From a virus (taxonomy: Duplodnaviria > Caudoviricetes), in IMG/VR virus record IMGVR_UViG_3300044814_000019, positions 1 to 53,810 of that record: DNA of 53,810 bases; one strand, written 5' to 3'. Position 1 is the stretch's first letter, and every line of letters starts with the position of its first letter. The notes under the pieces are model-generated. The model was not told the DNA's origin and searched no databases. It saw only the letters and a list, made by a program, of their open reading frames with translations. The translations under genes and the position numbers were made by a program. This document shows, in pieces, positions 7,933 through 45,062 of this stretch.

Positions 7933-8283
7933 ATGAACAAGACGCAGCTTCAAACCAGTACCGCAGCCCTTATTGGCGTCGCTGCCGGCTTCGCAGCAGC
8001 CCACGGGTGGCTTGGGCTGGGCGTGGGCGACTGGACTACCATACTCGGCGCCCTAGTCGCGGCCGGCGCTGTCGTGGCTCCTGCCATCGTCACGCGCGCC
8101 ACAGCCCTGAAAGACGCCGTAGGCAGCATGCCAGCGACTACCGTCGTGACCGACAAGGCCACGGCCGACGCATTGCCCGACAATCCTAACGTGATTGCCG
8201 CCACGCCGGAAATCGTCGCCGCCGTTAAGAAGGGGAGCGATGCCACTCCCGGCGTTCCGTATACGGGCGCGACGGTGCGGTGA
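7933..8283 (+). CDS. holin-like two-TM protein
   Basis: MNKTQLQTSTAALIGVAAGFAAAHGWL..WTTILGALVAAGAVVAPAIV. RBS GGAAGGG. Confidence 0.65.
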   Translation: MNKTQLQTSTAALIGVAAGFAAAHGWLGLGVGDWTTILGALVAAGAVVAPAIVTRATALKDAVGSMPATTVVTDKATADALPDNPNVIAATPEIVAAVKKGSDATPGVPYTGATVR

Positions 8284-9824
8284 ACTTTCCGTGGGCGCCA
8301 GCAGCTTCGCTCGTACAGACTAAGGAAGCCGTACGGGCGAAGCTTTGCAATTTCGATTACTATCGTGAAAAGTTTCTGTGTGTGCGTCCTCGCGAAGGCG
8401 GCGAGCGCATTCCGTTCATCTTGAACAGTGCGCAGCGCATGTTGCATGCCCGCATCGAGCGCGAGCGCGAAGTGTTCGGAATGGTGCGGGCACTCATCCC
8501 CAAAGCGCGCCGCATGGGCGTTAGCACGTACATAGGCGGTCGGTATTTCCATCAAACTGCAACGACGTTCGGGCGGCGCGCGCAAGTCGTGGCTCATAGA
8601 GCCGACAGCGCGAGAAACCTGCACCGGGAAGTGAAAGAATTTGCCGCCGGGTTGCCGGCGGCTTTACGTCCTTCGATCGGCGCCACGAACGCTCAAGAGT
8701 TGATTTTCGACAAGCTTAAGTCGTTGTACAAAGTATCGTCGGCGGACGGTGGCGACATCGGCCGTTCTGACGACTTTCACTTATTGCATATGTCCGAAGC
8801 GGCTCTATTTGACAACGTCGAAGATTTGTCGTCGGGTTTGCTTAAGACCGTATCGAGCCTTCCCGGTACCGAAATAGCCATGGAGAGCACTGGCAACGGT
8901 CAATCCGGTATGTTCTACAACATGTGTGAACAGGCAAATGCAGATGGCAATAGGGGACCGTGGCGTATTCATTTTTTGCCGTGGTCGCTGATGCCTGAGT
9001 ACCGCACGGCAGTCCCGTTTGGCTGGAAAGCACCTAAAGAATTTGAAGACTACGCTCGGCTGCACAGTTTGGACCGTGAGCAGCTCTATTGGTTTTGGAA
9101 AGAAAACTACGACTTAGCCACCATGAACGGCGGCCAGCCCGAGACGATTCACCGACTGACACGGCAAGAGTTTCCGGCCATCTATAGCGAGTGCTTCATG
9201 GCCGATAGCACGCTGGACTTCTATCCGGCGTCGTTGGTGCAGGCAGCCATGACCAGCAAGCCAGCGCCTTCCGCTGGGGCACTGAAGCTGCTCTGTGTGG
9301 ACCCGGCTGGCGACGGTCAAGACAAGCCCTTTGTATGCGATCGGCAAGGATCTGCGATCGGAATGCGGGTGTGGGGCGAACTGGCATCCCGCGATGCTAA
9401 CGTGGCGTCTGACTGGCTTGTGGCGACATTCCGACGCTTCGATATGGACGCCATTCTGGTTGACGGTACGGGTGGCTATGGGCGCGACCTGGTGGCGGGT
9501 TGCCGGCTGCGCATGCGGGAGTTGGGGCCGGAAAAGATTGTGGCCGTCATATTCAGCCATGGCGCCAACAACTCCGTTATGTACGGCAACCGGCGTGCGG
9601 AGTTGCACGACAAGCTGCTGCGCTGGCTCGGCGGCAAGGTATCAATGCCAAACGACAAGATGGCGCAAGAGGAAGCGGCGGCGTACAAGTGGGGGCAGAA
9701 TGCCTGCCGACGTGACGAGACGGCGCGACTGTTCATGACGCCGAAAGAGAAGATCAGGAAGCAAATCGGCCGCTCGCCAGATCGCTGGGATGCGTGCGCT
9801 ATTTCTATGGCGATCGAGGGCTGA
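8280..9824 (+). CDS. terL: terminase large subunit
   Basis: LNSAQ Q-motif, KARRMGVST Walker A, LHMSE Walker B, ESTGNG coupling motif, CVDPAGDGQD and SPDRWDA nuclease motifs. Confidence 0.93.
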   Translation: MNFPWAPAASLVQTKEAVRAKLCNFDYYREKFLCVRPREGGERIPFILNSAQRMLHARIEREREVFGMVRALIPKARRMGVSTYIGGRYFHQTATTFGRRAQVVAHRADSARNLHREVKEFAAGLPAALRPSIGATNAQELIFDKLKSLYKVSSADGGDIGRSDDFHLLHMSEAALFDNVEDLSSGLLKTVSSLPGTEIAMESTGNGQSGMFYNMCEQANADGNRGPWRIHFLPWSLMPEYRTAVPFGWKAPKEFEDYARLHSLDREQLYWFWKENYDLATMNGGQPETIHRLTRQEFPAIYSECFMADSTLDFYPASLVQAAMTSKPAPSAGALKLLCVDPAGDGQDKPFVCDRQGSAIGMRVWGELASRDANVASDWLVATFRRFDMDAILVDGTGGYGRDLVAGCRLRMRELGPEKIVAVIFSHGANNSVMYGNRRAELHDKLLRWLGGKVSMPNDKMAQEEAAAYKWGQNACRRDETARLFMTPKEKIRKQIGRSPDRWDACAISMAIEG

Positions 9825-9834
9825 CGTACCTGTA

Positions 9835-9863
9835 TTGACCTGTGTGGCAATGTATGTCATACG
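9835..9863 (+). promoter_or_regulatory. putative sigma70 promoter TTGACC-N17-CATACG
   Basis: -35 TTGACC at 9835. Contains the TGTCATAC motif. Confidence 0.5.
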
Positions 9864-9895
9864 CTTACCACTGTCAACCGTACAGGATCACAATT

Positions 9896-10186
9896 ATGGA
9901 CGTAATAGACACAGAAATCCCGAAACCGCTCAGCATGGCACCGGATGCCGTGCGCTCGCGCGCCCGCCGGGTGAAGGCCAAAGCGAGGTTCAGGCTTAAA
10001 CCTGAGCCCAAAGCGAAACTCAGGTCCAAGCGATCGCCGAAGTCGAAGCCCAGCACCGTTACGCGCTCGGAGCGGCTGGACATGCGGCTGACGAAAGCGG
10101 AGAAAGCCAAGATCATCGCCAAGGCCAAGAAAACCCGGCGTACGGTCACTAGCTTGGTTATCGAGGCGATCGAAAAGATCAAATGA
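9896..10186 (+). CDS. basic protein with C-terminal ribbon-helix-helix-like DNA-binding domain
   Basis: RSERLDMRLTKAEKAKIIAKAKKTRRTVTSLVIEAIEK follows the RHH beta-alpha-alpha pattern. Confidence 0.7.
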   Translation: MDVIDTEIPKPLSMAPDAVRSRARRVKAKARFRLKPEPKAKLRSKRSPKSKPSTVTRSERLDMRLTKAEKAKIIAKAKKTRRTVTSLVIEAIEKIK

Positions 10187-10331: not shown

Positions 10332-10363
10332 TCTTACCTCCTTGGCTCCACGCATTTGTAACG

Positions 10364-10392
10364 AAAAAGGCCCCGACTGTGAAGTCGGGGCC
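10364..10392 (-). terminator. rho-independent terminator
   Basis: GGCCCCGACT-TCAC-AGTCGGGGCC followed by T5 on the minus strand. Confidence 0.85.
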
Positions 10393-10455
10393 AAGTACAG
10401 GGAGGGTCGTAAAACCCCAAGCGGACAGCTTGGGCTCGGTGGGCCGCGCATGGCC

Positions 10456-12558: not shown

Positions 12559-13221
12559 CTATTTCTTTCCCTTCGCGAGCTGCGCCTTGCTGTAGTGCGC
12601 CTCAAGCGCCTTGGCTACAAATTTCTCGCGCCCTTCTTTAACACTCGGCGTTTTGGGCGCGAACTTGTCCGCCGTGCGGTTGATTTCCTTTTGCACGTCG
12701 GCCGGGGCATCGGACATCTTCGTCCACGGTCCCGACGTGCGGCGTGTGCGCGTACCGCCGGCATCGGCGTCCGCCGGCCCGTCGCTGGCGCGTGGTTTCT
12801 TTGCTTTGGCAGCAGCGGCTTCCGCTTCCTCTGCCTCTCGCGCTTCGCGTTCTTCGTCGGTTTCGCTTTCCGGCGGCTCTTTGGCGGCCGGTTTGAATTC
12901 TTCATCAACGACCTTGACCAGCGCCGCCGTGAACTCGGCAGCCGTCCCGAATTTCTTCGGGTCCATGGTCTTGCCGAGTTCGATCGTACGGCCGGATTTC
13001 TTCGGGTCCGTGCCGAACCACGGCAGTTTGTTCAGTTCCGCACGTATCTCGGCATCGCCGTACGCCATTGATGGCTTAGGCGCGGACGCGCTGTTGAGCG
13101 TGCTGATTCGGTCGGCTATCTTGCGCGCCGCTTCCGTGTCACCGTTGGTCACAGCGGTATCGAGTTCAGCTTGTAGGCCGCTTTTGGCGTGCTCCAGCAG
13201 CATTACGTTAAGGTCGGGCAT
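12559..13221 (-). CDS. capsid scaffolding protein
   Basis: Helical and charged, with AVTNGDTE and LPWFGTD motifs. Follows portal and GroES. Confidence 0.65.
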   Translation of the reverse strand: MPDLNVMLLEHAKSGLQAELDTAVTNGDTEAARKIADRISTLNSASAPKPSMAYGDAEIRAELNKLPWFGTDPKKSGRTIELGKTMDPKKFGTAAEFTAALVKVVDEEFKPAAKEPPESETDEEREAREAEEAEAAAAKAKKPRASDGPADADAGGTRTRRTSGPWTKMSDAPADVQKEINRTADKFAPKTPSVKEGREKFVAKALEAHYSKAQLAKGKK

Positions 13222-13690
13222 AGATCACCTTTTCGCGTGGCTGAATTTTCAAATCTTCCGGGGCGGCTTGCGCGGGTGCTTTCGCTGCGTCTTCGTCCCA
13301 CAGCAGTGTTGCCGGGTCCGGCATCTTATCGGACGGTACGCAGCCGATCACGTCTTGAAAGCTAGAGAGGTAGCGCCAGTGCCCGGCACCGGAAATCTTG
13401 CCGCCCACCGTCTGCGTCCCGGCGTACGGACGAAAAATAACCCAGTCACCGGTGTTCACGGGCTGCCGACTGAGGGCGCCCTCCGCATCTTTGTAGACGA
13501 ATGCAAGCGGCCCCATGGCGACGACGCGCCCGACCATGACGTTGTATTGCGCCATGTCCCGATAAACATCGGGTATCTGTATGCTGCCTACCATCTTTGG
13601 CGGCACCGGCAGCCGTACGATAACTATGTCTCGCGTCGGCTGTACGTGGGCGTGTGGTATAGCGAAGTCATGGACGCCGATGTTGCTCAT
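13208..13690 (-). CDS. groES: GroES-like co-chaperonin
   Basis: QPTRDIVIVR..GSIQIPD..GRVVAMGP..VNTGDWVIFRPYAGT..DVIG is the Cpn10 signature. Confidence 0.85.
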   Translation of the reverse strand: MSNIGVHDFAIPHAHVQPTRDIVIVRLPVPPKMVGSIQIPDVYRDMAQYNVMVGRVVAMGPLAFVYKDAEGALSRQPVNTGDWVIFRPYAGTQTVGGKISGAGHWRYLSSFQDVIGCVPSDKMPDPATLLWDEDAAKAPAQAAPEDLKIQPREKVIYARP

Positions 13691-21681: not shown

Positions 21682-22320
21682 ATGACGGTAGCGGCACCGG
21701 TCGGTTTTGGCGGCGGCCTCGGGGCAGTCATTGGCGCTCAGATAGGGGCCGACGATCTCAACAAGGGGCAGAATGCCGTCGACCACACGACAGACGCCTT
21801 CACGGCGGGAACGCAGCCGTACAACACGTTCGGACAGTCGTTCTTGCCGACTGCCACCAACGCGATAGGCAACATTCAGGGAAAGGCCGGAAACGTTCAA
21901 AGCTACGATCAGTTCATGTCCGGCTATTCGAATACGCCGGCCGCGCAGTACCAGATTCAGCAAGCGGACCAAGCACAGAACAACAGCGCCGCCGCCACTG
22001 GCGGTCTGCTTTCCGGTGCCAATGAGCGCGCACTTGGCACCATCAATCAAGGCATCACAGCGCAAGGTGCAAATACGGCGTACAACGAATACCTGCAAGG
22101 CAATCAGCAAGGTTTCGGCCAACTTGAAAGCGCCCTTGGCAATATGTTCAGTGCGATCGGCGTAGGGCAGACAGCGACGGGGCAGCAAGCTGGCGTTGAC
22201 ACGGCGCAGATCGGCGCCACGTCGAGTATAGCGCAAGCGCAGGCAAAGAACGCCGAAAGTAAAGGCAGCGGACTTGGGTCTATGTTCAGTGGGCTTGTTT
22301 CGAACATATTTGCGGTTTAA
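21682..22320 (+). CDS. DNA ejection/pilot protein (P22 gp7-like)
   Basis: Gly-rich N-terminus, QPY..GQ, TPAAQYQIQQ..NNSAAATGGLLSGA. Confidence 0.75.
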   Translation: MTVAAPVGFGGGLGAVIGAQIGADDLNKGQNAVDHTTDAFTAGTQPYNTFGQSFLPTATNAIGNIQGKAGNVQSYDQFMSGYSNTPAAQYQIQQADQAQNNSAAATGGLLSGANERALGTINQGITAQGANTAYNEYLQGNQQGFGQLESALGNMFSAIGVGQTATGQQAGVDTAQIGATSSIAQAQAKNAESKGSGLGSMFSGLVSNIFAV

Positions 22321-22820
22321 CTGCGTACGATTGAATAAACGTAGCAATCCTGCGGCTCCGTGCTGACATTCGGAAAGAACTCAAATCGCCGTAACAACCC
22401 CTCACGCATGGCGCCCATGCGTTCGGTCATGCGCTGACCTGCGATGTTATCGACGTGCACGTACGTCCACAGTCGCCACGTTTGCGGGTGCGTAAAAATC
22501 CACTGCACGAACGGCCGGCAGAACTCGCGACCGGCACCGCGTGCTTTCCAGTCGGGACGGAACATGATTGACATGGTTGCCTGATGCCGCGCAACCTCTA
22601 GCCCGATGACACCCAGAAGATCATTGTCGGAGTACACGCCTTGCCACTTTGCAATGCTATTGCGGTACCGCTCTATGAGCTGCGTCGCTTCGTCAACGGA
22701 TTTGTGCGTACGGAAGCCCATGTATCGCGTCACGTCGGGGTTGCCCGTCATGACAAATAGAGCCGGACCTTCCCACGGGTTGAGGTCGCGAACAGTGAAG
22801 CGGCCGACTTGTGCGGTCAT
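22317..22820 (-). CDS. GNAT (RimJ/RimL-like) acetyltransferase
   Basis: NPDVTRYM..RGAGRE..HVDNIAGQRMTERMGAMREGLLRR. Confidence 0.85.
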   Translation of the reverse strand: MTAQVGRFTVRDLNPWEGPALFVMTGNPDVTRYMGFRTHKSVDEATQLIERYRNSIAKWQGVYSDNDLLGVIGLEVARHQATMSIMFRPDWKARGAGREFCRPFVQWIFTHPQTWRLWTYVHVDNIAGQRMTERMGAMREGLLRRFEFFPNVSTEPQDCYVYSIVRS

Positions 22821-24757
22821 TTACGCATGCGTACGTCAAAATAGCCCTCCGCGTCAAGCGGTAATCCTAAAGTCCACGATCTCGGTCTTTTCATTATGCT
22901 CCGCATTTGTTCACAGCGCTCTTCGGCAATAGCTCCGGGGGACAAAGCCAAAATAGAATCGTACACGTCTAAAATCAAAACCACGTCCGGCAGCTCACGC
23001 TCGATATCGGCCTCGGCCGCCGTCACAAGATCTCGCGTCATGGACTGGCAGGCAATTTCTAGTAGTGAACCGCCGAACGCCTTTTGACGGAGCATTGCGC
23101 CAAATTTGCCGCGGAAGAACGCCATTTCGCCGTCGTACGTGATATGTGCCGAGTAGTGCGGCACCGCACGGCCGGATGGCAGTAGCATCCACACGGTACC
23201 GCGGCCGTCCTTTTGGAAAGCAACTTTGCCGGCCGGAAAAATGCGGCCGGGCTGCTCGTAGATAGCAAACTTGAACGCATCGGCGAGCGCGCACCAAAGC
23301 GATTGCAAAAGCGGATTTGCCTGCCGATACCCATCGATACTAGAACGGGCTTTAGCTTCATCTATACTAATGCCGCCTTTACGCATGTGTGCTAGGAAAG
23401 TTTTCCAGCCGAGTTGATAGTTGCCGCCAAGCGTAACGTTTTTATAGATGGTGTACTCTTTTAAGTTCGTCTTTTTCGTCCACCCTTCGGGCCACCCGCC
23501 CATTTTAATGGCGTTGTATATGTACGGATTATTGTTTTTATCTGCAACCACGTTTAGGCGCTCGGTATCTCCCGCCATCCATAGCGCAATCCGGTATTCT
23601 GCGCCTGACAAGTCGTTGTCGCAAACCATCCAACCATCAGGAGCGATAATTACGCTCCGCAAGCAGTCTGTAAGTGCGATGTTGTTGTACCTGTAGCCGG
23701 CTTTGAGACCCTGAATTACGCTGTCAATCGTAGGTCTGCCATCTTCCCCGTCGTACTTACCGGATGGCCGCGCGATGTTGAACATATTTGCGCCTTCGGA
23801 AGTACCCCGGCCTGACCGTGCACCGAAGTACCGCGTTGCGTCTTTGTAAAAACCGCTCACATGGCGATCGAGCAGCGCTTGCGCTTTCAACGGGGCGGAG
23901 CCGCCTTCGGACTGCAGTAGCTCCAAAACAATCCGCACGTCTGGGTGCAGATTTTCGTCGGCCAACTTTTCCGCAACGATATGCTTTTGTGTGCTTTCCA
24001 ACCCAGCCGCTCGGTTGCCGCTATTGCACCACTCCATGATGCGCTGGCGTTGTGACAGCTTCGTTACTGCATTCTGCGTCAGCTCCATCAATGTGGCAGT
24101 GCTCTCCTGCTCAATTTCCTGCCGGCGCATTGCAATGGCAGTAGCTAGGTGCACGTCGATCGGCAATCCGATTTCGTTCTTTCGCCACGTGCGTTCGAAA
24201 ATCAGACGTTCGTGATCGGTCAAGGGTGGCAAGCGCTCGTCAACTCCTTTCAAAGCGCGTTTGTCACGAAGGCAGTACGCTACCAGCTTGCGGTATGTTT
24301 CCACGTCTTCATTGAACGTGCCGTCTTTTTGGGGTTTGCACGTCGCCATGACCAGCGCGTGACCTTCGGGGCTCTTACCTTCGGTCCCGAGCGTACGGCA
24401 GACTTGTTCTAAACCGCCGGGCAGCGCCAGTGCTTGAGCGCGTGCCATCGTGCAATCAATCTTAGATAGCGGCAAATCGAGAAACGGATTAACAGCGCGC
24501 AAAATCGCCACATCAAAATTAGCGTGATGTGCGACAAAGCGCCGGCACTCCCGCACATCGGCATACAGGTCTGCGAGCGCATGTGTGCCTAGGAACGGGT
24601 GCACGGGACATGCGGTCTTTTCGACGCCGCGGAACTCCCATGCTACACAAGTCACGCCTGTTGATGGGTCTGCCGCATAGCGTCGCGCGCCAGCCCGTTT
24701 AAGATCGGTGCGTGAGCGCGTCTCAAAATCGCATAGGAGATCGTCAGGGTGTGCCAT
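22817..24757 (-). CDS. polA: family A DNA polymerase with 3'-5' exonuclease
   Basis: ExoI DFETRS, ExoII HANFD, ExoIII YCLRD, GARSGR, motif A DLSGAEYR, motif B KNVTLGGNY, motif C VYDS. Confidence 0.9.
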   Translation of the reverse strand: MAHPDDLLCDFETRSRTDLKRAGARRYAADPSTGVTCVAWEFRGVEKTACPVHPFLGTHALADLYADVRECRRFVAHHANFDVAILRAVNPFLDLPLSKIDCTMARAQALALPGGLEQVCRTLGTEGKSPEGHALVMATCKPQKDGTFNEDVETYRKLVAYCLRDKRALKGVDERLPPLTDHERLIFERTWRKNEIGLPIDVHLATAIAMRRQEIEQESTATLMELTQNAVTKLSQRQRIMEWCNSGNRAAGLESTQKHIVAEKLADENLHPDVRIVLELLQSEGGSAPLKAQALLDRHVSGFYKDATRYFGARSGRGTSEGANMFNIARPSGKYDGEDGRPTIDSVIQGLKAGYRYNNIALTDCLRSVIIAPDGWMVCDNDLSGAEYRIALWMAGDTERLNVVADKNNNPYIYNAIKMGGWPEGWTKKTNLKEYTIYKNVTLGGNYQLGWKTFLAHMRKGGISIDEAKARSSIDGYRQANPLLQSLWCALADAFKFAIYEQPGRIFPAGKVAFQKDGRGTVWMLLPSGRAVPHYSAHITYDGEMAFFRGKFGAMLRQKAFGGSLLEIACQSMTRDLVTAAEADIERELPDVVLILDVYDSILALSPGAIAEERCEQMRSIMKRPRSWTLGLPLDAEGYFDVRMRK

Positions 24758-24800: not shown

Positions 24801-25601
24801 TTAGCGCGGGCCGAACGGGTTAACCGGCGGCGCGCTAAAATGGGATGGTGTCGCCGCAGGCCCACCGAAACCCGGCCCACTCAGGGCCTGAGCACCCGAA
24901 AGGGCAGGGGCGTTCAGTGTCGGGGCAAATCCGCCTGCCGGCGGCGTAAAACCCCCAGGCTGTCCAAACTGCTGTTGCGGCGCTCCGAAGGGCTGAGGCA
25001 CAAACCCACCGGGCGACGCACTGAAGCCCGCAGGACGCAAGCCTTGCTGTTCCGCCATCCGCATCAGCTCGGCACCGCTGACGGAATTGGCGAACACGAT
25101 TTCCTCGCCCGGCGATGAAAACACAACGGCGTTGAGGTACAGCTTGACGCCACGCGGGTCGTTCTGTTTCACGGCTGCCGTTACGCCGGCCATGACGTAA
25201 TCACCGGACTTCACGCCGACTTTGTTCGTCAGCTTCGTGAGTACGCCGCCGGCTTGAACGATTTCGACATTCGGCGGGTTACCGCTCGATCCTGAAAATA
25301 GCCAGTGACCTTTGGCAAACTCGGACGACTTGCCCTCCGGGCTTGGCATGTCGCCATCGATGACGGGCCAAACGAGGACATGCGGATTCGTTTGGTAAAT
25401 TTTGCCGCACGCCGCCGCGATGCCCGCTAGCGCCGGTTCCTGGAACCACTGCGCCACAGTCTTCTTGACGAGGAACATGGCGAAGTAGTTGGGCTTCTGC
25501 GTGGGCTGCCCTTTGTACTCGCGGGAGGGGTCCCACAAGTGCCGCATGTCCGCAATGCGAGCGTTGAACACCGTTGCAGCTTCGTATTGTCGCTGTGCCA
25601 T
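24801..25601 (-). CDS. ssb: phage single-stranded DNA-binding protein (DUF2815/gp2.5-like) with low-complexity tail
   Basis: WPVIDGD..GHW..VKSGDY..GVKLYLNAV. Sits between polA and the Cas4-like gene. Confidence 0.75.
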   Translation of the reverse strand: MAQRQYEAATVFNARIADMRHLWDPSREYKGQPTQKPNYFAMFLVKKTVAQWFQEPALAGIAAACGKIYQTNPHVLVWPVIDGDMPSPEGKSSEFAKGHWLFSGSSGNPPNVEIVQAGGVLTKLTNKVGVKSGDYVMAGVTAAVKQNDPRGVKLYLNAVVFSSPGEEIVFANSVSGAELMRMAEQQGLRPAGFSASPGGFVPQPFGAPQQQFGQPGGFTPPAGGFAPTLNAPALSGAQALSGPGFGGPAATPSHFSAPPVNPFGPR

Positions 25602-29669: not shown

Positions 29670-29934
29670 GGTTTTTCCCCAGGTATTGCATATCCCGATC
29701 AAGAGCTTCACGCAATTTAGCTAACGTAGCGTTAACAACGTCATCCTTGCTGGCATGGCTGCCCGCAATTGCCAGCGCCATGACGCCTGCCAAGCCGTCG
29801 ATGTACGCTGCGACGACATCCTGACCGCAGTGACGGCTTGTGCTGATTGTGTGCGCGAACACAATCATGTGTGTGCGTATCGCGTCACGGAGCGTGACGC
29901 CGGCCGCTGTCTCGATTTTTAAGCCGTCATCCAT
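29656..29934 (-). CDS. hypothetical protein
   Basis: RBS GGAG. Coupled ORF. Confidence 0.65.
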   Translation of the reverse strand: MDDGLKIETAAGVTLRDAIRTHMIVFAHTISTSRHCGQDVVAAYIDGLAGVMALAIAGSHASKDDVVNATLAKLREALDRDMQYLGKNHAEH

Positions 29935-30250
29935 TGTCCAGCTCCAGACCTAATTCACTTGCCAATTTCCAGACACGCGACATGATCTGCTGTACGGTCA
30001 TGTACTGCGTATTGACCTGCGGCATTCCGATATCTTGCAGCTCAATTGTCGTGCCGTCAAGGAATTTCACTTCGCCGCGCGGCACGATCTGGCCCCGTTG
30101 CGTGTTGGCCGTGAAAATCAGCATTGGATTGTTGGAATGCACCACAACTGCGGTATGCGTGACAGCGTACGCGAAATCGCTCTGCAGCAGCGCAACAATA
30201 TCCTCGACCGATCGAGGGTGTGGCTCCCATGGGAACAGTTCTTCAGTCAT
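29927..30250 (-). CDS. hypothetical protein (N-terminal LFPWE)
   Basis: ATGA-coupled to the methyltransferase. Confidence 0.65.
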   Translation of the reverse strand: MTEELFPWEPHPRSVEDIVALLQSDFAYAVTHTAVVVHSNNPMLIFTANTQRGQIVPRGEVKFLDGTTIELQDIGMPQVNTQYMTVQQIMSRVWKLASELGLELDNG

Positions 30251-31245
30251 GGCATGTACTGCATAGCCGCTTTTATGAATTCTTCGGCTTGCGGCGCGAC
30301 GATAGCATTACCGTAGCCCCGCAAAAGTCCCACTCGATTGGCAACCCCATGAGCCAGCGGGAATGAACTGGGTTCAACTGGCCGCCACTTGTCATCTTTG
30401 CATCGAAGCCAGTCAGCAGCTCGCCAGTAGCCGTTAGTCGAGCCGGTCCCGTTATTGAAGTCACCAAGGCTTGCGTTTTTCGGCCGCTGTCCGTACTGCC
30501 CGCAGCCGTTGTTGTTGGCCAGCCCGCTAGCCATGCCGAACGGCCAAGCAGGGCATTCGTCGGAACCGTCCCCTCGCTTGCTCCGTCCTTCCAATCCCGC
30601 GTTGTTGTTGTTGGCCAGCCCGCTAACTGAACTTGTAACTCCAGAGGTTGACCCATCCCCCTCCCATGCTTCGCTATGCATCGAGCGTTCCGGGCTTCGT
30701 AATCGGACAGTTTCGGCGTCCCCCGCACCGTAAAAGCTCGTGGCGTAGGCCATCCAATAAAGCCGCTGTCTGATGTGCGGCGCCCCGAAGCCCGCAGCGC
30801 ATTGATCGAGCGCCCCGAAGGCGTAGTTCGTACCTTCCATGTCAGATTGTACAAGGTCGAGCCAAGCAAGTCCGTCCGGACTCGCAACCTGCTCGCCAAA
30901 AACGACGTCAGGTCTACACTGCTCGATAAGATGGAAAAACGCAGGCCATAAGTGCCGCTCGTCAGTAAACCCCGCGCCTTGGCCTGCTTGGCTGAAAGGT
31001 TGGCATGGGCAAGAACCGCTCCAGCTTTGCCGATCATCGGGCCACCCGGCGCGACGCATGGCGTAAGACCAGACACCGATGCCGGCGAAGAAATGGCATT
31101 GCGTGTACTTGGCAAGCTCCAAGGGAGTAACATCTTCGATGCTCCTTTCGTCGACATCGCCGGGTGCGATCATGTTCGCAGCAATCAATTTGCGCAGCCA
31201 CTCGGCTGCGAACGGGTCTTTTTCATTGTAGTAGGCTATTCCCAC
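30247..31245 (-). CDS. C5 DNA cytosine methyltransferase, alpha subunit
   Basis: FFAGIG (motif I), SCPCQPFS (IV), GEQV (VI), PHIRQRLY (VIII), GYGNAIV (X). Confidence 0.9.
   Translation of the reverse strand: MGIAYYNEKDPFAAEWLRKLIAANMIAPGDVDERSIEDVTPLELAKYTQCHFFAGIGVWSYAMRRAGWPDDRQSWSGSCPCQPFSQAGQGAGFTDERHLWPAFFHLIEQCRPDVVFGEQVASPDGLAWLDLVQSDMEGTNYAFGALDQCAAGFGAPHIRQRLYWMAYATSFYGAGDAETVRLRSPERSMHSEAWEGDGSTSGVTSSVSGLANNNNAGLEGRSKRGDGSDECPAWPFGMASGLANNNGCGQYGQRPKNASLGDFNNGTGSTNGYWRAADWLRCKDDKWRPVEPSSFPLAHGVANRVGLLRGYGNAIVAPQAEEFIKAAMQYMP
30273..31157 (-). CDS. overprinted methyltransferase beta subunit (TRD/motif IX), true start uncertain
   Basis: Long alternative-frame ORF with three GWPT repeats and LNPVHSRWLMGLPIEW (motif IX-like). 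Confidence 0.65.
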   Translation of the reverse strand: MSTKGASKMLLPWSLPSTRNAISSPASVSGLTPCVAPGGPMIGKAGAVLAHANLSAKQAKARGLLTSGTYGLRFSILSSSVDLTSFLASRLRVRTDLLGSTLYNLTWKVRTTPSGRSINALRASGRRTSDSGFIGWPTPRAFTVRGTPKLSDYEARNARCIAKHGRGMGQPLELQVQLAGWPTTTTRDWKDGASEGTVPTNALLGRSAWLAGWPTTTAAGSTDSGRKTQALVTSITGPARLTATGELLTGFDAKMTSGGQLNPVHSRWLMGLPIEWDFCGATVMLSSRRKPKNS

Positions 31246-31285
31246 GGCATCTTCTTTCGTAAATAGCTCGCATCCATCGGGTACA

Positions 31286-31870
31286 CTATTTCTCCGTCGC
31301 CGTCGTCCCAGACCACGGAAATCTCTGCATCTGCTTTTTCAGTTTTTCAACAAGTTTCTCTAGTTCTTCAATACTAGCGTCGCTTTTTATTCTGTTGGCC
31401 CGGTTACTGATAACCCACACGTTGCCGCGAACATAACCTAACGATGCCACTATTTTATCTAGTGAGGGAGACGCATCGTTAAATTTTCCCCTTCCTACTT
31501 TCAGCTCCGTACCAAACACCGGGCAGAATGCGGGTACTTGTACGTCATTTTCCGTGATGTTGAATGGGATGTTTCTTTCGGCTGCTCTTTTCTTTGCGCT
31601 TTTAAGCGAAATTTTTATAAAATCTTTTTCGTATCGCCTTCGCTCGCGCTCTTTTGCCAAGGCGGGGTCCACGGCGTACCGTTTGCGGTCTGACTCTCTG
31701 CGGCGTTCTGGGTACCTGTCGCGGTGTCTTTTATTTGCGTTTCTTCTGCACTGCATGCACTGACCGCGCTTGTCTCGGCCCGCGTCATGTCCGTTCCTGC
31801 ATGTATCACCCACGGCGTAGGCTGGTATGTCGTGTGTGCCAGAGGCGTGTGGGTCGCACCAAGGAAACAT
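31286..31870 (-). CDS. HNH/endonuclease VII-like homing endonuclease
   Basis: CRNGH..CMQC, CPVFG..PSLDKI..GYVRGNVWVISNRANRIK. Confidence 0.8.
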   Translation of the reverse strand: MFPWCDPHASGTHDIPAYAVGDTCRNGHDAGRDKRGQCMQCRRNANKRHRDRYPERRRESDRKRYAVDPALAKERERRRYEKDFIKISLKSAKKRAAERNIPFNITENDVQVPAFCPVFGTELKVGRGKFNDASPSLDKIVASLGYVRGNVWVISNRANRIKSDASIEELEKLVEKLKKQMQRFPWSGTTATEK

Positions 31871-31930
31871 CGTCGCCCGTCCATTTCCTTTTTACCGCAC
31901 GCGCAGATGCCGTCCCACTCGCCGTTCGCA

Positions 31931-32119
31931 TCAACGCCCATCGTCTTCGCCTGGAAACCCCTCTTGACGAGAGACGATGGCAATGCCGTGCATGTCGATT
32001 TCACCCTCATCGTTAATTGCGTGTTCGTAACCGGCCGCCTCCATTTTGTTGTATATTTCTTTATACGCGGCCCTGCTGACTTCCATAGTTACGTACGTAT
32101 GTGTCTGTCTTATTACCAC
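31931..32119 (-). CDS. small hypothetical protein
   Basis: THTYVTMEVSRAAYKEI..AAGYEHA..IDMHGIA. Confidence 0.6.
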   Translation of the reverse strand: MVIRQTHTYVTMEVSRAAYKEIYNKMEAAGYEHAINDEGEIDMHGIAIVSRQEGFPGEDDGR

Positions 32120-34161
32120 GGAAAGCTCTCCTTCGGTATTTCGATTGTGAACGGAATAGTCAATTCTTGCCGTACGCTGCCGGCCGGCGGATATATAACA
32201 AAAAACGGAAAACCGTACAAGGCCCGAAGGTGCCCGCTGTCCATTAAATTTTTCAAACCGTCTTCGAACATTTTTTTGGCGGCGTCCTTACTGACGACGT
32301 AGCCGGGTACTTCGCCCTTGATAGCGTGACCAACTTCGGCCGCTACGCTGTCAAATCTGACGACGCTGCCCGCTCGCAGGGCGTCCATGCCCGCAGCCGT
32401 AACGCCCGGCAGCATCGCGGCCAGCCTGAGCACCGCGGACTGCTCCTTGTTCTCTTTGATGATCTCGGAAGTGCGCTTAAACACGTTAACCGTTGTTGTA
32501 CGCCCCTTCGCGTCTTTACCGTAGTTCTCCGAGACGATTCGGCCGGTATAACTCTTGGCCTTCGGCGCTCCGCGCGCCTTGCCACAATCGACCGATACGT
32601 AATCGTTGCGAGTGCCAGTGACGCGGTACACAAAGCCGCTATTGCCGGTTTTGGCGCCGTTGCCTTTCTGCCACGCGTCTTCGTTGCCGAGCGGCAAGTG
32701 ATCAGTGACGACCAAAGCCGCGTTTGTACGGCGCGCTACGCTTTTCAAGATGAACATGGCTTTTAGGACAGCTTCAGTATCGTTGTCGGCAAAACAAAGG
32801 CCCGACGCTCCCCAAGTATCTAGCACGATCATATCGACGCGCTTGCCCATCGCAGCTAGTGCTTGCACTTGGGCCACACACTGCTGTTCGAAGGCCATCG
32901 GTTCGTTAACACTGTGAATCAAATGAAACCGCAGCCTCAATTCGAGCGCATTCGGCTCTTGTCGTAACAAGTGCCTTACGCGTCGTTCTGTGCCGTAATC
33001 ATCTTCGGCGGCGACCCATAATACGTGACCATCGACGCGTTCGTTATCGGCGTCGAGCCACGCTTGCCCTCGTAGAAATTGCACAGCCATATCAGTAACG
33101 AGCGCGGACTTGCCGGCGCCGCTGTGCCCGGTGAAGAAATGAACTTCACCACAAAGTATCCGTTGATATAATAACCATGGTAACTCTGCACTGTCATCCT
33201 CCAATGAGATTTCAAAGCCCGATCGCAATTCCAGCGTCGGCATTGTTCGTGCATCGTTTAGTCCTTGCAGAATCGTACGTCGCGACATGATCGCTTGCAT
33301 GATCAGATTGCCACGTAAGACTGGTAGTTCGTCTTGTCGGCTTATTTCTTCGCCCAGCGTGCGGCCGCCAATGCCTTCGTCCAGGCTGTGACCGGCTTCT
33401 ATGATGGCGTCTTCAATCTCGCTTCGCGTACACATGGCATGCTGTGCAGCGAATTTCAGCACGCCAACAATTGCGAAGATCGTAGATCCTCGCCCTTCGG
33501 TTTTGCCTAGCAGTTCATGCTTGAGCATCCCGAGGTATCGAGCGGCAGCATCACGCCCAGCCTCCCACTCATCGTACGTTTGCGGCGCCGCGTATTTCAA
33601 TTCGTCGGCGCTAGCGGTTTCGTGGTCGGCCGTAAAGCGTAGCGACGTTCCGGCTCTTAGTGGGACCTCTGACAAAACCTTTTGCAGTTGTTCGGCTGTC
33701 AAACGCGGCCAGTCAGCATCCCAATTTTCCCAACGGTAATCTCGGCCGGTATCTTTGTGCGGGCCGAAAGCAACGAACTGGCCTCCCATCAACTGCAGCT
33801 TATTGCCGTCTGGGAAACTAAACGTGCGGCCCTGTACGGGTGCGTCAACAAGATAAAACGGAATCAAGAACCTCGGCTCGCGACCCCAGCGCACGGGGAT
33901 ACTCGGACCTAATACGGAACGAAACGCTGCGAGCAATCGTTGTGATACCTGCGGGTCCGAATGGTCACAGTCGAAAGCGGTCAGTCCGTTATCGCCGCAG
34001 CGGAGTCCTACGCCGCCCGCGCCTGGGTGCGCGATTGGGTAGGTCCATATATTCCAACCCTCACCGATCGGGGCTTTGGAATTTCGGGCAATGGCCAGTG
34101 GGAACAGGCCGCGCGCGATGGCGGCGTCCCAGAAGGCTTGCAGGTCAGGCGGAAAAGACAC
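32113..34161 (-). CDS. primase-polymerase fused to RecA-like (AAA_25) helicase
   Basis: N-terminal SKAPIGEGW..GVGLRCG..AFDCD..QFVAFGPH. Walker A GHSGAGKS, Walker B IVLDT. Confidence 0.85.
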   Translation of the reverse strand: MSFPPDLQAFWDAAIARGLFPLAIARNSKAPIGEGWNIWTYPIAHPGAGGVGLRCGDNGLTAFDCDHSDPQVSQRLLAAFRSVLGPSIPVRWGREPRFLIPFYLVDAPVQGRTFSFPDGNKLQLMGGQFVAFGPHKDTGRDYRWENWDADWPRLTAEQLQKVLSEVPLRAGTSLRFTADHETASADELKYAAPQTYDEWEAGRDAAARYLGMLKHELLGKTEGRGSTIFAIVGVLKFAAQHAMCTRSEIEDAIIEAGHSLDEGIGGRTLGEEISRQDELPVLRGNLIMQAIMSRRTILQGLNDARTMPTLELRSGFEISLEDDSAELPWLLYQRILCGEVHFFTGHSGAGKSALVTDMAVQFLRGQAWLDADNERVDGHVLWVAAEDDYGTERRVRHLLRQEPNALELRLRFHLIHSVNEPMAFEQQCVAQVQALAAMGKRVDMIVLDTWGASGLCFADNDTEAVLKAMFILKSVARRTNAALVVTDHLPLGNEDAWQKGNGAKTGNSGFVYRVTGTRNDYVSVDCGKARGAPKAKSYTGRIVSENYGKDAKGRTTTVNVFKRTSEIIKENKEQSAVLRLAAMLPGVTAAGMDALRAGSVVRFDSVAAEVGHAIKGEVPGYVVSKDAAKKMFEDGLKNLMDSGHLRALYGFPFFVIYPPAGSVRQELTIPFTIEIPKESFPW

Positions 34162-34174: not shown

Positions 34175-34810
34175 TCAGGGCGTCAACACATTTGGCGGGA
34201 ACGCGGTAATGATGTCCGTGCGTTGACGCACCCGTTCCACCGCCGCCGCATTCGCCGCCCACGCCGCATTCGCCGCATTCGCCGCATTCGCCGCCGCCCC
34301 CGCCGCCCACGCCGCCGCCCCCGCCGCCCACGCCGCCGCCCCCGCCGCCCACGCCGCCGCCCCCGCCGCATCCGCCGCCCACGCCGCCGCCCCCGCCGCA
34401 TCCGCCGCATTCGCCGCATCCGCCGCATTCGCCGCATTCGCCGCCGCCCACGCCGCCGCATCCAGGTCAACAGAGTTGTCGCCTTCGCACCATTTTTTGA
34501 CTGCAGCGATACAGTCATGCACCCTGGCATCCGCTGTGTGCACAGATGCCCTCGCGACAGCTGGCACTATGGTACTGGATATGACGCGCCTGCGAACCGA
34601 AATATCGGACCAATTCAGCACGCGAATGCACCAGAGGGCGTCAGCAACGCCATTTGCTTGCGCTATGTCTCCGAGTGAAAGACGGGTATTCATCGGTGTT
34701 TTTGCCGGGAGCGCGCCGAGCAACTGCGACCATCCGGTCGCACATGGATGCGCATTGCTAATGTCTTGCAACGTGAATAAAATCTTTTTACGGTGAGGGT
34801 GGTTTACCAT
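34175..34810 (-). CDS. hypothetical protein with AAWAA/AANAA low-complexity tract
   Basis: PCATGW..NGVADALWC. GCG-rich repeat tract. Confidence 0.75.
   Translation of the reverse strand: MVNHPHRKKILFTLQDISNAHPCATGWSQLLGALPAKTPMNTRLSLGDIAQANGVADALWCIRVLNWSDISVRRRVISSTIVPAVARASVHTADARVHDCIAAVKKWCEGDNSVDLDAAAWAAANAANAADAANAADAAGAAAWAADAAGAAAWAAGAAAWAAGAAAWAAGAAANAANAANAAWAANAAAVERVRQRTDIITAFPPNVLTP
34240..34462. repeat. coding low-complexity tandem repeats (9- and 21-bp units)
   Basis: (CGCCGCATT)n and CGCCGCCCCCGCCGCCCACGC units. Confidence 0.85.
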
Positions 34811-36358: not shown

Positions 36359-36387
36359 AACGTACACACATGCCAGTACGCTGTCAA
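36359..36387 (-). promoter_or_regulatory. early promoter TTGACA-N17-TACGTT
   Basis: Canonical -35 and spacer, duplicated at 36056. Confidence 0.75.
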
Positions 36388-36971
36388 CCTCCTTCCCAAG
36401 GCATTTTTGAATTATTTTTGGCAAGCTGCTCATGTATCCTTTTTGTGGCTTCCGCCATAGTCAGGGGCTCAGGCAGCCGCCGATATGTCGCCGGTTCCAG
36501 CGGCTTCGTGGGCGGCTTCGTGGGCGGCTTGAAGCCGACGGTTTCGGCTGGCCGTTGCTGGCCGCGCAATTCCTTGAGCTGCACATACAGGCCCTCCAGC
36601 TCCTCTTTCATGGTGGCGTTGGCCGTACGCAGTGTTTCCAGTTCCTGCATTATTTCTGCCGGTACTGCTGCGATTGTGGTCTGTACGGGCGCCGACCCAT
36701 TCGCAACCGGCCTAGACGTGCCGCCGCGCGATCCGGGACCGCCGGCCTTACGTTCCGCACGGCACTTCGGGCAGTTGCGCAGCAGCAGTCCCGCGTTTTT
36801 CTTGCTGCCGTCGAGCGCGTGCCTAGTCACGTCGATGCTGATTTCAACTCCACAGGTCACGCACGGCTGCGTCACTCGGTACAGATGAATATAGTTGCCG
36901 TTCCAGAACTTTGTGACTGGGTCGCCGCCTTGCCAGCCATCCGGTAGCTCGCCATCGAATTTCGGGTGCAT
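36384..36971 (-). CDS. Zn-ribbon plus coiled-coil protein
   Basis: RBS CAGGAG. CVTC..CPKC, coiled coil, KPPT repeats, ends KMPWEGG. Confidence 0.7.
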   Translation of the reverse strand: MHPKFDGELPDGWQGGDPVTKFWNGNYIHLYRVTQPCVTCGVEISIDVTRHALDGSKKNAGLLLRNCPKCRAERKAGGPGSRGGTSRPVANGSAPVQTTIAAVPAEIMQELETLRTANATMKEELEGLYVQLKELRGQQRPAETVGFKPPTKPPTKPLEPATYRRLPEPLTMAEATKRIHEQLAKNNSKMPWEGG

Positions 36972-38173: not shown

Positions 38174-38584
38174 ATGAATACCAACACCCCCGCCCTTGCC
38201 ACCGTTTACGCTGATCTCGAATCGGTGCTAGCCAAACTGCAGGCCATCGACGCCAATGCGATCGAGAGCGCCAATCTCGTTCCGATGATCAAAGCCGTAC
38301 AGTCGATCGGCGCGTACACCGCAGCGATTGACGCCCAGATCCAAGCACGTGCGATCGGCAACGGCGAGCTGATTCCCGGCGTTGTCGTCAAGGACGCCAT
38401 CGTACATCGCAAGTGGCAGGATGACACTGCCGCTGCGCAGCTCGCGCAAGAGCAGTTCGGCGACGCGGCATTCGATCGCAAGATGAAATCACCGGCCGGC
38501 ATTGAGAAACTCGGCGATGCTGGCAAGTCGTTCGTCGCGGTGGCGAGCTTCAAGCCGGAAGCTGGCAAGCGAGTGGTTTACTGA
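38174..38584 (+). CDS. stand-alone paralogue of the DUF2800 C-terminal domain
   Basis: IPG..RKW.D..AA..FG..SPA..EKLG.AGK..AV..KPEA..Y is shared with 25815-26792. Confidence 0.75.
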   Translation: MNTNTPALATVYADLESVLAKLQAIDANAIESANLVPMIKAVQSIGAYTAAIDAQIQARAIGNGELIPGVVVKDAIVHRKWQDDTAAAQLAQEQFGDAAFDRKMKSPAGIEKLGDAGKSFVAVASFKPEAGKRVVY

Positions 38585-38983: not shown

Positions 38984-39216
38984 ACATCAAAGAATTCGGC
39001 GCACTCAAAGTCGGCGACAAGATCAGCAATCTCGCCATCGGCGGCTTGAACTGCGGCGAGATTGTCGAATGCACGTCCAGCGGCGTGCGTGTCGTGTGGG
39101 GGCCGCGCCATGATCGCGAGACGCGGTTTTTCTACAGCGTCGTTGGCACGTCTTGGATGCAATGGAGCAGCGTGACACCGCTTGGAGACGTGACACCGCT
39201 TGGAGACGTGCCATGA
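38980..39216 (+). CDS. small SH3/Tudor-like hypothetical protein
   Basis: MNIKEFGALKVGDKI..GEIV..VRVVW. Confidence 0.6.
   Translation: MNIKEFGALKVGDKISNLAIGGLNCGEIVECTSSGVRVVWGPRHDRETRFFYSVVGTSWMQWSSVTPLGDVTPLGDVP
39171..39210 (+). repeat. 18-bp tandem duplication containing the gcrA RBS
   Basis: CGTGACACCGCTTGGAGA x2 followed by CGTG. Confidence 0.9.
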
Positions 39217-39569
39217 CGCTGTGGACCGAGGAACGCGATACGCAGCTCCGCAAGTTGCGCGATCGGGGTTTTACGTTCGATGATATCGCTGCCAAGCTGG
39301 ACACGACTAAGGGCAGCGTCATCGGCAGGGCGGGTAGGCTCGGCCTGCCGAAGCGAGGGCAGCCCGTATGGCGGCACGTCTACCATCGCGCTGTCGCGTC
39401 AACTCCGTTGCTGCCTTCTGTTGGCCCTGTTGCGTTGCTCGACCTGGAGCCGCACCATTGCCGTTGGCCGGTCAATGACGCGCCTTACTTGTTCTGCGCC
39501 GGCACGAAAATCGACGGCAGTTCGTACTGCGAGCATCATTTCGGCGTATCCAGGCGTGGGGTGACATGA
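39213..39569 (+). CDS. gcrA: GcrA-family cell-cycle regulator
   Basis: WTEER..LRKL..GFTFDDIAAKL..TKGSVIGRAGRLGL (HTH) and LLDL..HCRWPV..FC..SYCEHH (sigma-binding Zn domain). Confidence 0.92.
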   Translation: MTLWTEERDTQLRKLRDRGFTFDDIAAKLDTTKGSVIGRAGRLGLPKRGQPVWRHVYHRAVASTPLLPSVGPVALLDLEPHHCRWPVNDAPYLFCAGTKIDGSSYCEHHFGVSRRGVT

Positions 39570-44143: not shown

Positions 44144-44151
44144 GGTACGCA

Positions 44152-44460
44152 ATGTTTCCGTGGCTGTTCACGCAAAAACCAAAAGCGACGGCGCCACGCG
44201 AGGTCATGCTGGATCGGTTGCGAGAAGGCGTACCATCGGAGTTAGCGGCTCGCGCCGCTGGCATCGAATGGAGCGCGGTAAAAGACGACCCTGAAATAGA
44301 CAAGGCACTCGCCGAAGGTGAAATACTACTGTTCGAACGAGCGCGTGACAGTGGCGTTACCGGCGTCGTACGCGCGGCGCTCAGGAACGAGACGAAGTCG
44401 TGGGTCCCCAAAGCTGAAGCGCCGCTAGGACTCAGTTTAGAAGACTATTTGCGTGATTAA
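44152..44460 (+). CDS. probable terminase small subunit (HTH)
   Basis: LREGVPSELAARAAGI HTH, helical core, LSLEDYL C-terminus. No other TerS candidate was seen. Confidence 0.5.
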   Translation: MFPWLFTQKPKATAPREVMLDRLREGVPSELAARAAGIEWSAVKDDPEIDKALAEGEILLFERARDSGVTGVVRAALRNETKSWVPKAEAPLGLSLEDYLRD

Positions 44461-44956
44461 GGGGTATCCAACCTGTTTTATCGTTCTTTCTTCGGTTGCA
44501 TGTTATGCACGCCCAAACTAAGTTGTTTTCAGTGTGTTTGCCGCCTTTAGATACTGGCGCTATATGATCTAACTCGCCTTCACCATGCAGCGCTGAACCA
44601 CAGTACGCGCACTTATCGTTTTGTGACGCACGGAGCGCGTCAAGAAAATGCTTATCAACAGCGCTGGTTTCTTTTTCAGCCGCGCGCCTTCTGTGTCGCT
44701 GTTTAGCGTTTTTAGCTTTCGCAGCGGCGGGATTTGACGTACGCCATAGTTTTTCACTGGTACTTTGTTTTTCGGGATTGTTATGACGCCAGCGATTATT
44801 AATGGTGCGTTTCTTTTCAAGGTTGCCGACGCGCCAACGTTCTTTGCTCGCGCGAGCGCAAGGCACGCACAGCTTTTTATTGGCTGCCGCGTAACGCAAC
44901 GTGCCGCCGCAGTTACGGCAGGGTTTCCCATGGAAGTGTTTGTTTTGGTTTTTCAT
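44432..44956 (-). CDS. HNH endonuclease
   Basis: CRNC..CVPC, CAYCG..LDHIAPVSKGGKHTENNLVWACITCNRRK. Confidence 0.88.
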   Translation of the reverse strand: MKNQNKHFHGKPCRNCGGTLRYAAANKKLCVPCARASKERWRVGNLEKKRTINNRWRHNNPEKQSTSEKLWRTSNPAAAKAKNAKQRHRRRAAEKETSAVDKHFLDALRASQNDKCAYCGSALHGEGELDHIAPVSKGGKHTENNLVWACITCNRRKNDKTGWIPLNHANSLLN

Positions 44957-45062
44957 CTTTTTGCGTTTTAAGCATGTACGGCGCAACGTTGTTGGCGTCG
45001 CGTTTGAGAAATGTAGGGATTTCGAGGCTGTCCCGTACAGGTGACTTCTCCCAGGGCATCAT
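44913..45062 (-). CDS. 49-aa protein carrying an FtsZ C-terminal-peptide-like motif
   Basis: RBS GGAG. DSLEIPTFLKRDAN. Candidate promoter TTGACG-N17-TTATCT upstream. Confidence 0.6.
   Translation of the reverse strand: MMPWEKSPVRDSLEIPTFLKRDANNVAPYMLKTQKDEKPKQTLPWETLP

Follow-up and report, generated by a model that had tools for sequence, protein, structure and literature searches.

Why do proteins that are otherwise unrelated carry the same three residues at their ends? The question is raised by a 53,810 bp viral record from IMG/VR (IMGVR_UViG_3300044814_000019), a complete uncultured phage genome in a circularly closed assembly, which was analysed over its whole length and is called the window below. 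A first-pass annotation of its letters had pointed out a recurrent (F/M/L)PW(E) motif close to the termini of DNA-transaction and packaging proteins, among them the primase-helicase and the large terminase subunit (TerL). All ten of its sites were recovered in place (Table 1), and its general proposal, a lineage-specific short linear motif on the flexible ends of such proteins, is upheld by the results below; two particulars, a small-terminase (TerS) label and an analogy with the C-terminal IPF of bacterial single-stranded DNA-binding protein (SSB), are not. We suggest that the motif, written here as Phi-P-W-(E/Q/D) with Phi the residue before Pro, is probably a lineage-specific docking motif for one common putative receptor.

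A search with the primase-helicase returned 27 related viral loci (66-90% identity), and a TerL profile returned 52 (identity at least 71%). The pooled set comprised the window and 15 complete relatives, 16 genomes in all; an earlier count was made on 11 genomes. Genes were called with a crude in-house caller that was blind to the motif and mis-called some starts, and a copy was scored as terminal when it lay no more than 10 residues from a protein end, a zone that takes in ~10% of all positions. All seven [FMY]PW tripeptides in the automatic gene calls of the window were terminal (binomial P 1.2e-7), and residue shuffles of the window averaged 0.26 terminal copies and never exceeded 2 (300 shuffles). 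For the 11 genomes the terminal fraction was 71/79 against a shuffle mean of 2.9 (maximum 8), and for other xPW tripeptides it was 27/207; across all 16 genomes these fractions were 98/115 and 35/290. The control phage KX257490.2 had no [FMY]PW, and none of its five other xPW tripeptides was terminal. Of the 17 non-terminal copies in the 16 genomes, nearly all were the second of a tandem pair (11-16 residues from an end) or lay behind mis-called starts, and about three were truly internal. When 1015 tripeptides were scanned without bias, FPW (36/37 terminal), MPW (25/32) and PWE (26/42) took ranks 1-3 for terminal enrichment. The terminal motif is real and far beyond chance, as the first-pass annotation had estimated from residue frequencies.

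The motif is also kept in related phages. All 23 distinct tails of primase-helicase orthologues end in xPW followed by 0-7 residues (x is F in 10, M in 10, Y in 2 and G in 1), with the Pro codons CCG (11), CCA (11) and CCT (1). Likewise, all 40 distinct N-terminal regions of TerL carry xPW, in many cases twice in tandem, ~10-20 residues ahead of the conserved domain; here the Pro codons were CCG (21), CCT (17), CCC (6) and CCA (6). At orthologous sites Phi is specified by codons for F, M, Y, L, W or P. Since all four Pro codons are used and Phi is variable, selection is, on the evidence of these sequences, on the protein and not on the DNA. Either strand considered, 259 9-mers were able to encode [FMY]PW; 132 were in frame and in the sense direction (expected ~1 in 6), and 115 of those were terminal. 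In the window, TTYCCNTGG occurs at six distinct sites, every one an in-frame terminal FPW. Four sites do have the identical nucleotides TTTCCGTGG, as had been noted, and the nucleotides flanking the motif sites show no obvious common sequence. With synonymous Pro codons varying and in-frame sense copies in excess, the frame-independent nucleotide conservation that would have marked a DNA or RNA element was not seen.

N-terminal copies follow the consensus M-x(0-4)-[FMLY]-P-W-[ED]-x-P-P and run on into Pro-rich linkers; C-terminal copies follow [KP]-x-[EK]-[KTS]-[MFY]-P-W-[EQ]-x(0-3)-end, with K/R commonest one position upstream of Phi. Many copies are N-terminal, the flanks are rich in K, P, E and T, and the offset from the chain end is variable (0-7 residues after W, 0-10 or more before Phi). 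The 112 unique contexts, selected by this very pattern, all have F, M, Y, L or W before P. Among 109 full-length primase-helicase homologues, drawn from the best 150 of 1297 matches among 1.84 billion representatives, four had PW no more than 16 residues from the end (P0001, P0010, P0109 and P0076). One of these, P0010, is a 34%-identical homologue ending in ...MPWE; it falls in single-member clusters and was not met in IMG/VR or the JGI metagenomes.

At least one terminal copy was found in 33 protein families, 11 of them in three or more genomes. The TerL gene has a GTG start that overlaps the stop of the upstream gene, and its motif lies within an extension, roughly 15-20 residues long, that precedes the conserved domain. 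In p102, W4 is invariant among 11 orthologues, most of which have the motif once mis-called starts are read through. This protein had been put forward as the TerS candidate, a label that is unsupported, p102 having no match among Pfam, PHROG, NCBIfam or PDB profiles. P7 and W8 of p107 are invariant among 12 orthologues, and 17 of the 18 members of the p195 family have the motif at the C-terminus. Carriers in the relatives include an N6_N4 DNA methylase (PF01555, E 9e-17), a Dam-like protein, a DUF6551 protein and HNH genes, and many small proteins encoded between the primase-helicase and p107 are also tagged. No copy was found on capsid, portal or tail-fibre proteins, and the polymerase, SSB, exonuclease, SNF2 helicase and VRR-NUC nuclease are without the motif. 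A separate conserved element, N/H/E-P-W-E-G-P, stands at residues ~14-19 of the RimJ/RimL-type GNAT, whose gene adjoins that of the polymerase; it seems to belong to the fold and not to be a tag.

AlphaFold2 (AF2) models of two carriers, the primase-helicase and p107, place the motif on tails that are predicted to be disordered. Residues 660-682 of the primase-helicase had a predicted local distance difference test score (pLDDT) below 50 and no secondary structure, and the preceding domain (580-659) scored about 80-89. Docking of this tail in cis was not seen in the monomer model, which was poor overall (mean pLDDT 59). The degenerate second copy upstream in the same tail reads MPW, LPW or IPW in relatives. 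The p107 model had a mean pLDDT of 90.1, with a fold that starts at residue 15 and coil over residues 1-14. No match to this fold was found by Foldseek in the PDB at E<=0.001 (best VIA-align Z 3.1), and its Atlas matches were to viral clusters only, at 0.78 or below.

The residue at Phi changes in concert within genomes. In the relatives G003 and G012, Phi is Y in TerL (both copies), the primase-helicase, p107 and p195, and in their sister G005 the four families read F, F, W and F. In G011, Phi is M in all four families, TerL having one L copy and one M copy. M also prevails in clade D, and F in clade B outside p195. Within-genome concordance was 39 of 63 pairs, against 19.7 +/- 3.3 by permutation. 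Over all 16 genomes it was 52 of 82 pairs, against 26.1 +/- 6.4 in simulations of independent evolution along the core-gene tree, of which 3 in 5000 attained the observed value. Because Phi shifts in step across four unrelated protein families, we argue for one shared reader; the sequence pattern points to a single putative receptor.

From these observations we infer that the tails bind a receptor, that this receptor is a single one and that binding results in recruitment. Phi-P-W, with Phi mostly F, M or Y, would be displayed on disordered N- or C-terminal tails of non-virion proteins, often in tandem. The clients would be the primase-helicase, TerL, p102, p107, p195 and small accessory proteins, joined in relatives by methyltransferases and HNH endonucleases. 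One pocket on the receptor would take the Pro-Trp pair of every copy, and the enzymes that replicate, modify, cut and package the DNA would thereby be gathered at one place. A bolder version, which we hold only tentatively and would not bet on, is that Phi-P-W serves as a private address code. It would then be read on more than 30 families by one receptor, which might be a host protein or a phage protein without annotation in place of the polymerase, and a single factory would couple replication, methylation, homing-nuclease action, control of host division and packaging; the pocket of this receptor would have been re-adapted two or more times (M to F to Y), the clients following.

What might the receptor be? 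The family-A DNA polymerase, which has no motif of its own, was modelled together with the SSB core (1-195), with residues 625-682 of the primase-helicase as partner. Three runs gave an interaction prediction score from aligned errors (ipSAE) of 0.45, 0.01 and 0.36, with a median of 0.36; none of three controls, among them one with the polymerase replaced, scored above 0.00. The runs had at least 7% of contacts in common and a partner pLDDT of at least 43. The mark used for such predictions is reached by 116 of 157 solved complexes and by 2 of 215 mismatches, and at 0.60 or under stand only 18 of the 157 together with both mismatches. The prediction weakly suggests that the polymerase may be a socket for the C-terminal piece of the primase-helicase. 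It is the only receptor candidate with any support, at best a lead that would parallel the role of the T7 polymerase, and a host protein is equally possible. As a separate observation, the polymerase of the relative G002 (L038:7937-10741) is longer, with 934 aa where the others have about 646; its additional ~290 residues are without a Pfam match and could be an intein or an inserted domain.

The SSB tip has its own pattern. Its orthologues end in PF[GA]PR (PFGPR, PFAPR), PFPGR, AWPSR or TWPQR, and Phi-P-W was found in 0 of 15. The shared form is an aromatic residue, two residues of which at least one is Pro, and a last Arg, following a long low-complexity linker rich in G, P, Q and F. Since the SSB has this different conserved tip, it is not a client; with this tip the replisome has two distinct tail motifs.

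No sliding clamp was recognisable among the called proteins in Pfam and PHROGs, which leaves room for a divergent one. The clamp family PF00712 gave 0 matches over six frames, in a search whose controls were positive in 10 of 14 genomes, and PF02916 gave 0 matches in a search without a positive control. A covariation scan was also tried. The columns that split genomes of F type from those of M type were most frequent in the exonuclease (6/348) and p164 (3/169), and none lay in the SSB. It was rejected as evidence, the exonuclease tree being split along the same line, which is a phylogenetic confound. For p143, considered as a hub, the Atlas held nothing above TM 0.34, and the 1340-aa protein matched nothing in the PDB, Pfam or NCBIfam.

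In 16 of 16 genomes, variable small genes, most of them PW-tagged, are concentrated in the interval from the primase-helicase to p107. In the window this hot spot holds HNH#1, an insertion relative to the relative G001. Upstream of HNH#1 lies the 5' part of a zinc-ribbon gene (NGEWDG.CACGK) and downstream the 3' half of p68. The MFPW start of HNH#1 and the conserved small zinc-ribbon gene overlap in different frames, as do the RFPWSG end of HNH#1 and the p68 remnant. Both copies fit the consensus context and may be real tags; because they overlap other-frame remnants of neighbouring small genes, they do not count as independent evidence. The KKMPWE end assigned to a minigene in the same interval stands, and the 16-codon gene of its own does not. 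Its frame reads VVWDDGDGEIVYPMDASYLRKKMPWE and matches G013_338 (…VWHDSGDGKPITYPMDASYLRKQMPWD) as well as members in G002 and G004, which makes it the 3' remnant of a p68-family gene.

The small protein p49 has a copy at each end, and its 3' end overlaps the start of HNH#2. Its homologue in G013 reads MMPWE … HPWEK, and p49 is a real small-gene family. An internal peptide of p49 resembles the conserved FtsZ C-terminal peptide; in the homologues from G013, G001, G009 and G010 it reads AIPAFLKR, EIPDFLKR, DIPEFLKR and DIPGFLKR. The E. coli FtsZ C-terminal peptide contains D373 I374 .. L378 R379 K380 (PMC3618327). The protein p49 may mimic this peptide and compete for FtsA and further readers of the FtsZ tail, which would make it a host division inhibitor.

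Table 1. Motif sites, their carriers and other features of the window (nucleotide positions of the whole stretch)
Feature	Position	Strand	Remarks
Direct terminal repeat	1-127 and 53684-53810		127 bp
TerL	8280..9824	+	514 aa; phrog_2 terminase large subunit
TerL motif V/M-N-F-P-W	FPW 8286-8294	+	residues 3-5
220-aa gene	12559-13221		
GroES/Cpn10-like protein	13208-13690	-	160 aa; PF00166, E 1e-5; 15/16 genomes
RimJ/RimL-type GNAT	22317-22820	-	PF13302; 14/16 genomes
Family-A DNA polymerase	22817..24757	-	646 aa; phrog_17; no own motif; candidate socket
SSB C-terminal tip N-P-F-G-P-R	24804..24821	-	gp2.5/Enc34-like SSB, PF10991; separate from PW set
Exonuclease	25815-26792	-	ends …KPEAPLKASY
p107	29927..30250	-	107-aa core protein; motif near N-terminus
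p107 motif MTEELFPWE	L-F-P-W-E 30227-30238 (FPW 30235-30227)	-	
HNH#1 surroundings	31236-31941	-	
Minigene	31236..31286	-	3' remnant of p68 family (~55-68 aa)
Minigene motif KKMPWE-stop	MPW 31250-31242	-	
HNH#1	31286..31870	-	endonuclease-VII-like; phrog_3322, phrog_1035
HNH#1 motif near end R-F-P-W-S-G	31304-31324 (FPW 31321-31313)	-	
HNH#1 motif at start M-F-P-W	31859-31870 (FPW 31867-31859)	-	
Primase-helicase	32113..34161	-	682 aa; Prim-Pol + AAA_25; PF09250, PF13481; PHROG primase/helicase families
Primase-helicase motif S-F-P-W-stop	FPW 32116-32124	-	last three residues
Upstream I-P-F, degenerate second copy	32149..32157	-	~9 residues before terminal motif of primase-helicase
211-aa protein	34175-34810	-	phrog_18326, function unknown
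Tandem repeats in 211-aa gene	34243-34457		9, 21 and 30 bp
p195	36384..36971	-	zinc-ribbon-like N-terminus, coiled-coil-like stretch, tail K-M-P-W-E-G-G
p195 motif KMPWEGG-stop	MPW 36396-36404	-	
p136	38174-38584	+	in 10/16 genomes; ends …KPEAGKRVVY
GcrA-like gene	39213-39569	+	PF07750, E 4e-18
p102	44152..44460	+	102-aa core protein; motif at start
p102 motif M-F-P-W	44152-44163 (FPW 44155-44163)	+	
HNH#2	44432-44956		PF01844, phrog_1035
p49	44913..45062	-	small protein; MMPWE N-terminus, LPWETLP C-terminus
p49 motif LPWETLP	LPW 44936-44928	-	
p49 FtsZ-tail-like peptide E-I-P-T-F-L-K-R	about 45000-45023	-	
p49 motif MMPWE	MPW 45059-45051	-	
Protein with beta-propeller-like matches	49142-50218		tail-fibre region

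Several points weigh against docking on one receptor. In clade B the p195 family retains M where the rest have F. The concordance of Phi rests on about 2-3 lineage events and depends on the gene calls, the tree and a simple model of substitution. The FtsZ-tail-like peptide of p49 suggests that not all clients are DNA enzymes. That the polymerase, SSB, exonuclease, SNF2 helicase and VRR-NUC nuclease are untagged fits a hub model without proving it. In the complex prediction one of the three runs fell to 0.01 and no interface was reported, so that the contact may lie outside the motif; the score may also be an echo of the solved T7 helicase-polymerase complex. The covariation scan, confounded by phylogeny, singled out no clear receptor protein.

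The main rival is the degron that the first-pass annotation had offered as its second choice. An exposed Phi-P-W would be read by a host protease or adaptor of the Lon, ClpXP or ClpAP type, which would limit the lifetime of potentially toxic or stage-specific proteins (nucleases, terminase, methylases, a division inhibitor) or set their timing. Exposed segments rich in aromatic residues are preferred by Lon, and the motif is terminal, exposed, aromatic-rich and found at either end; many clients are nucleases or methylases, and adaptation to a new host's protease would account for the concerted change of Phi equally well. Tags anchored to the chain end, such as ssrA, do not have the variable offset seen here, although Lon-type and adaptor-type degrons are unaffected by this point. 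Tandem copies suggest avidity for an oligomeric partner. Moreover, the essential and stoichiometric primase-helicase (23/23) and TerL (40/40) keep the motif, which would be odd for a destruction signal. We regard a degron as unlikely, if still worth taking seriously.

Could the motif act without any defined pocket? As a partition tag, the Pro-Trp pair would be a sticker that draws clients into a condensate or onto a surface, such as the FG/PQ-rich tail of the SSB, p143 or the membrane. The long low-complexity region of the SSB, rich in G, P, Q and F, and the P/Q-rich linker of p143 would suit such a role, as would a motif that is very short and often duplicated. The strict invariance of P and W and the concerted switching of Phi among M, F and Y point instead to a shaped pocket, and other xPW tripeptides have no terminal bias. 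This explanation appears improbable to us.

We see a similarly slim chance that the primase-helicase is itself the socket. Its own tail would plug into the neighbouring subunit of the hexamer, and the other tagged proteins would mimic that tail so as to load, regulate or displace the helicase, as BRC repeats do on RAD51. The helicase has two copies of the motif, and small tagged genes are concentrated beside its gene; in the monomer model, however, its tail is undocked in cis (pLDDT <50), and the idea amounts to a sub-case of docking on one receptor with a different receptor.

A DNA or RNA element, or a cassette or homing-endonuclease scar, in which TTYCCNTGG would mark gene boundaries (for recombination, translation coupling or nuclease targeting) with the peptide as a by-product, is largely refuted and would now be very surprising: the four identical window sites, the clustering of 5 of the 10 window sites at the HNH#1 insertion with two copies overlapping remnants of other genes, and the NTG start codon that CCNTGG holds in another frame are set against the varied Pro and Phi codons, the in-frame, sense and terminal bias of the capable 9-mers, the dissimilar flanks and the retention of the motif in genomes without HNH insertions.

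Docking through a shared terminal peptide is an established principle, of which Phi-P-W would be a variant; the motif lacks the defining sequence and placement features of each known system. Full-text literature searches, assessed at the level of titles and abstracts and with subscription journals outside their coverage, gave no description of a phage PW motif among the papers listed. In phage T7 the C-terminal tail of the gp2.5 SSB docks on the gp5 DNA polymerase. The T7 tails are acidic and end in Phe, and only two T7 proteins are known to carry them. The T7 gp4 helicase tails dock on basic polymerase patches (PMC8472574). The phage of the window resembles T7 in having a short peptide on the flexible tail of a replicative helicase-primase that is shared with another protein and would have one reader; the tail of the primase-helicase is likewise C-terminal, is kept in 23 of 23 orthologues and is modelled as disordered. 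The T7 tails, however, occur at the C-terminus only, with the aromatic residue last, whereas Phi-P-W is non-acidic, N- or C-terminal and spread over 33 families including TerL, methylases and HNH nucleases, and the SSB bears another tip in place of the motif.

Clamp ligands offer a second comparison. The beta-clamp is bound through QL[SD]LF and PCNA through the PIP-box QxxLxxFF, and T4/RB69 gp45 through tails on gp43, gp55 and gp33; the T4 clamp hub is also linked to late transcription and packaging. Here too many unrelated DNA enzymes have one short terminal peptide for what would be one hub, but the phage consensus is unrelated to QL[SD]LF or QxxLxxFF, and no clamp gene was recognised in the window. 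The bacterial SSB tip, D-D-D-I-P-F, is acidic, needs a free C-terminus and is received by pockets on many clients. Its likeness to Phi-P-W is formal, a hydrophobic-Pro-aromatic tripeptide on a disordered tail that enters a hydrophobic pocket. The polarity is reversed, the clients here carrying the peptide, and the motif is N-terminal in TerL, p102 and p107 or has up to 7 residues after it. The IPF analogy drawn at first is only formal; the phage SSB has a different conserved tip. End-anchored degrons (ssrA-like C-tags and N-degrons) differ in that Phi-P-W has no fixed position from the chain end.

By sequence, the nearest published motif is (R/K)PWE, which is analogous and not related. According to PMC12339391, the (R/K)PWE of PEX39 and that of PEX13 bind the same site of the WD40 protein PEX7 in a mutually exclusive manner, as a hand-over. 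The P-W-E core, a nearby basic residue and the use of one receptor by two unrelated proteins recall the phage motif; the setting, as described there, is eukaryotic peroxisomal import, and the basic residue directly precedes P, where the phage has a hydrophobic one. No WD40 family was found among the window proteins in Pfam at E<=0.01. Beta-propeller-like Pfam matches (Sortilin-Vps10, below the cut-off, and BNR) fell only on one protein of the tail-fibre region.

The genome in which the motif occurs is far from cultured phages. It had no nucleotide match to the cultured phages of INPHARED (50,697 records). By tblastn, the window TerL is 28-30% identical to known phage terminases, 30% at most, and cultured-phage matches to the primase-helicase cover only ~20% of its length. 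Pfam was run on 73 called window proteins and PHROGs on 74. They describe a podovirus-like structural set (capsid, head-closure Hc3, DNA-ejection protein, tail fibres) and a replication arm on the minus strand, with a VRR-NUC nuclease, GNAT, family-A DNA polymerase, gp2.5/Enc34-like SSB, DUF2800 exonuclease, SNF2-type helicase, C5 methylase, HNH genes and the Prim-Pol/AAA_25 primase-helicase. The putative portal is a 645-aa gene, assigned from position and size and without a family match. The GcrA-like gene, the sole pointer to a host, hints at an alphaproteobacterium; a profile scan found no relatives in GTDB genomes, hence pinned down no host, and the window genome has no tRNA genes.

Further genes of the window deserve mention in their own right. 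The 211-aa protein contains an Ala/Trp repeat (AAAWAA(G/D)…) encoded by tandem repeats, and clustering found no homologue in the other 15 genomes. The match of the small protein p136 to the DUF2800 / PD-(D/E)XK exonuclease model is confined to the C-terminal part of the model, and p136 has an end similar to that of the exonuclease (Table 1); p136 is a stand-alone copy of the exonuclease C-terminal domain. The GroES/Cpn10-like gene lies between the 220-aa gene and that of the putative portal.

If the docking code is true, it would give a handle on the organising hub of a phage replisome that has no recognised clamp. Shared docking tails are known from only a few proteins of phages (T7 gp4 and gp2.5; T4 gp43, gp55 and gp33). 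Orphan genes that act at the site of replication or packaging would become predictable, and mobile accessory genes such as HNH nucleases and methylases would be seen to plug into the phage machinery through a few codons. It would also be a rare natural case in which a motif and its receptor have been retuned in concert.

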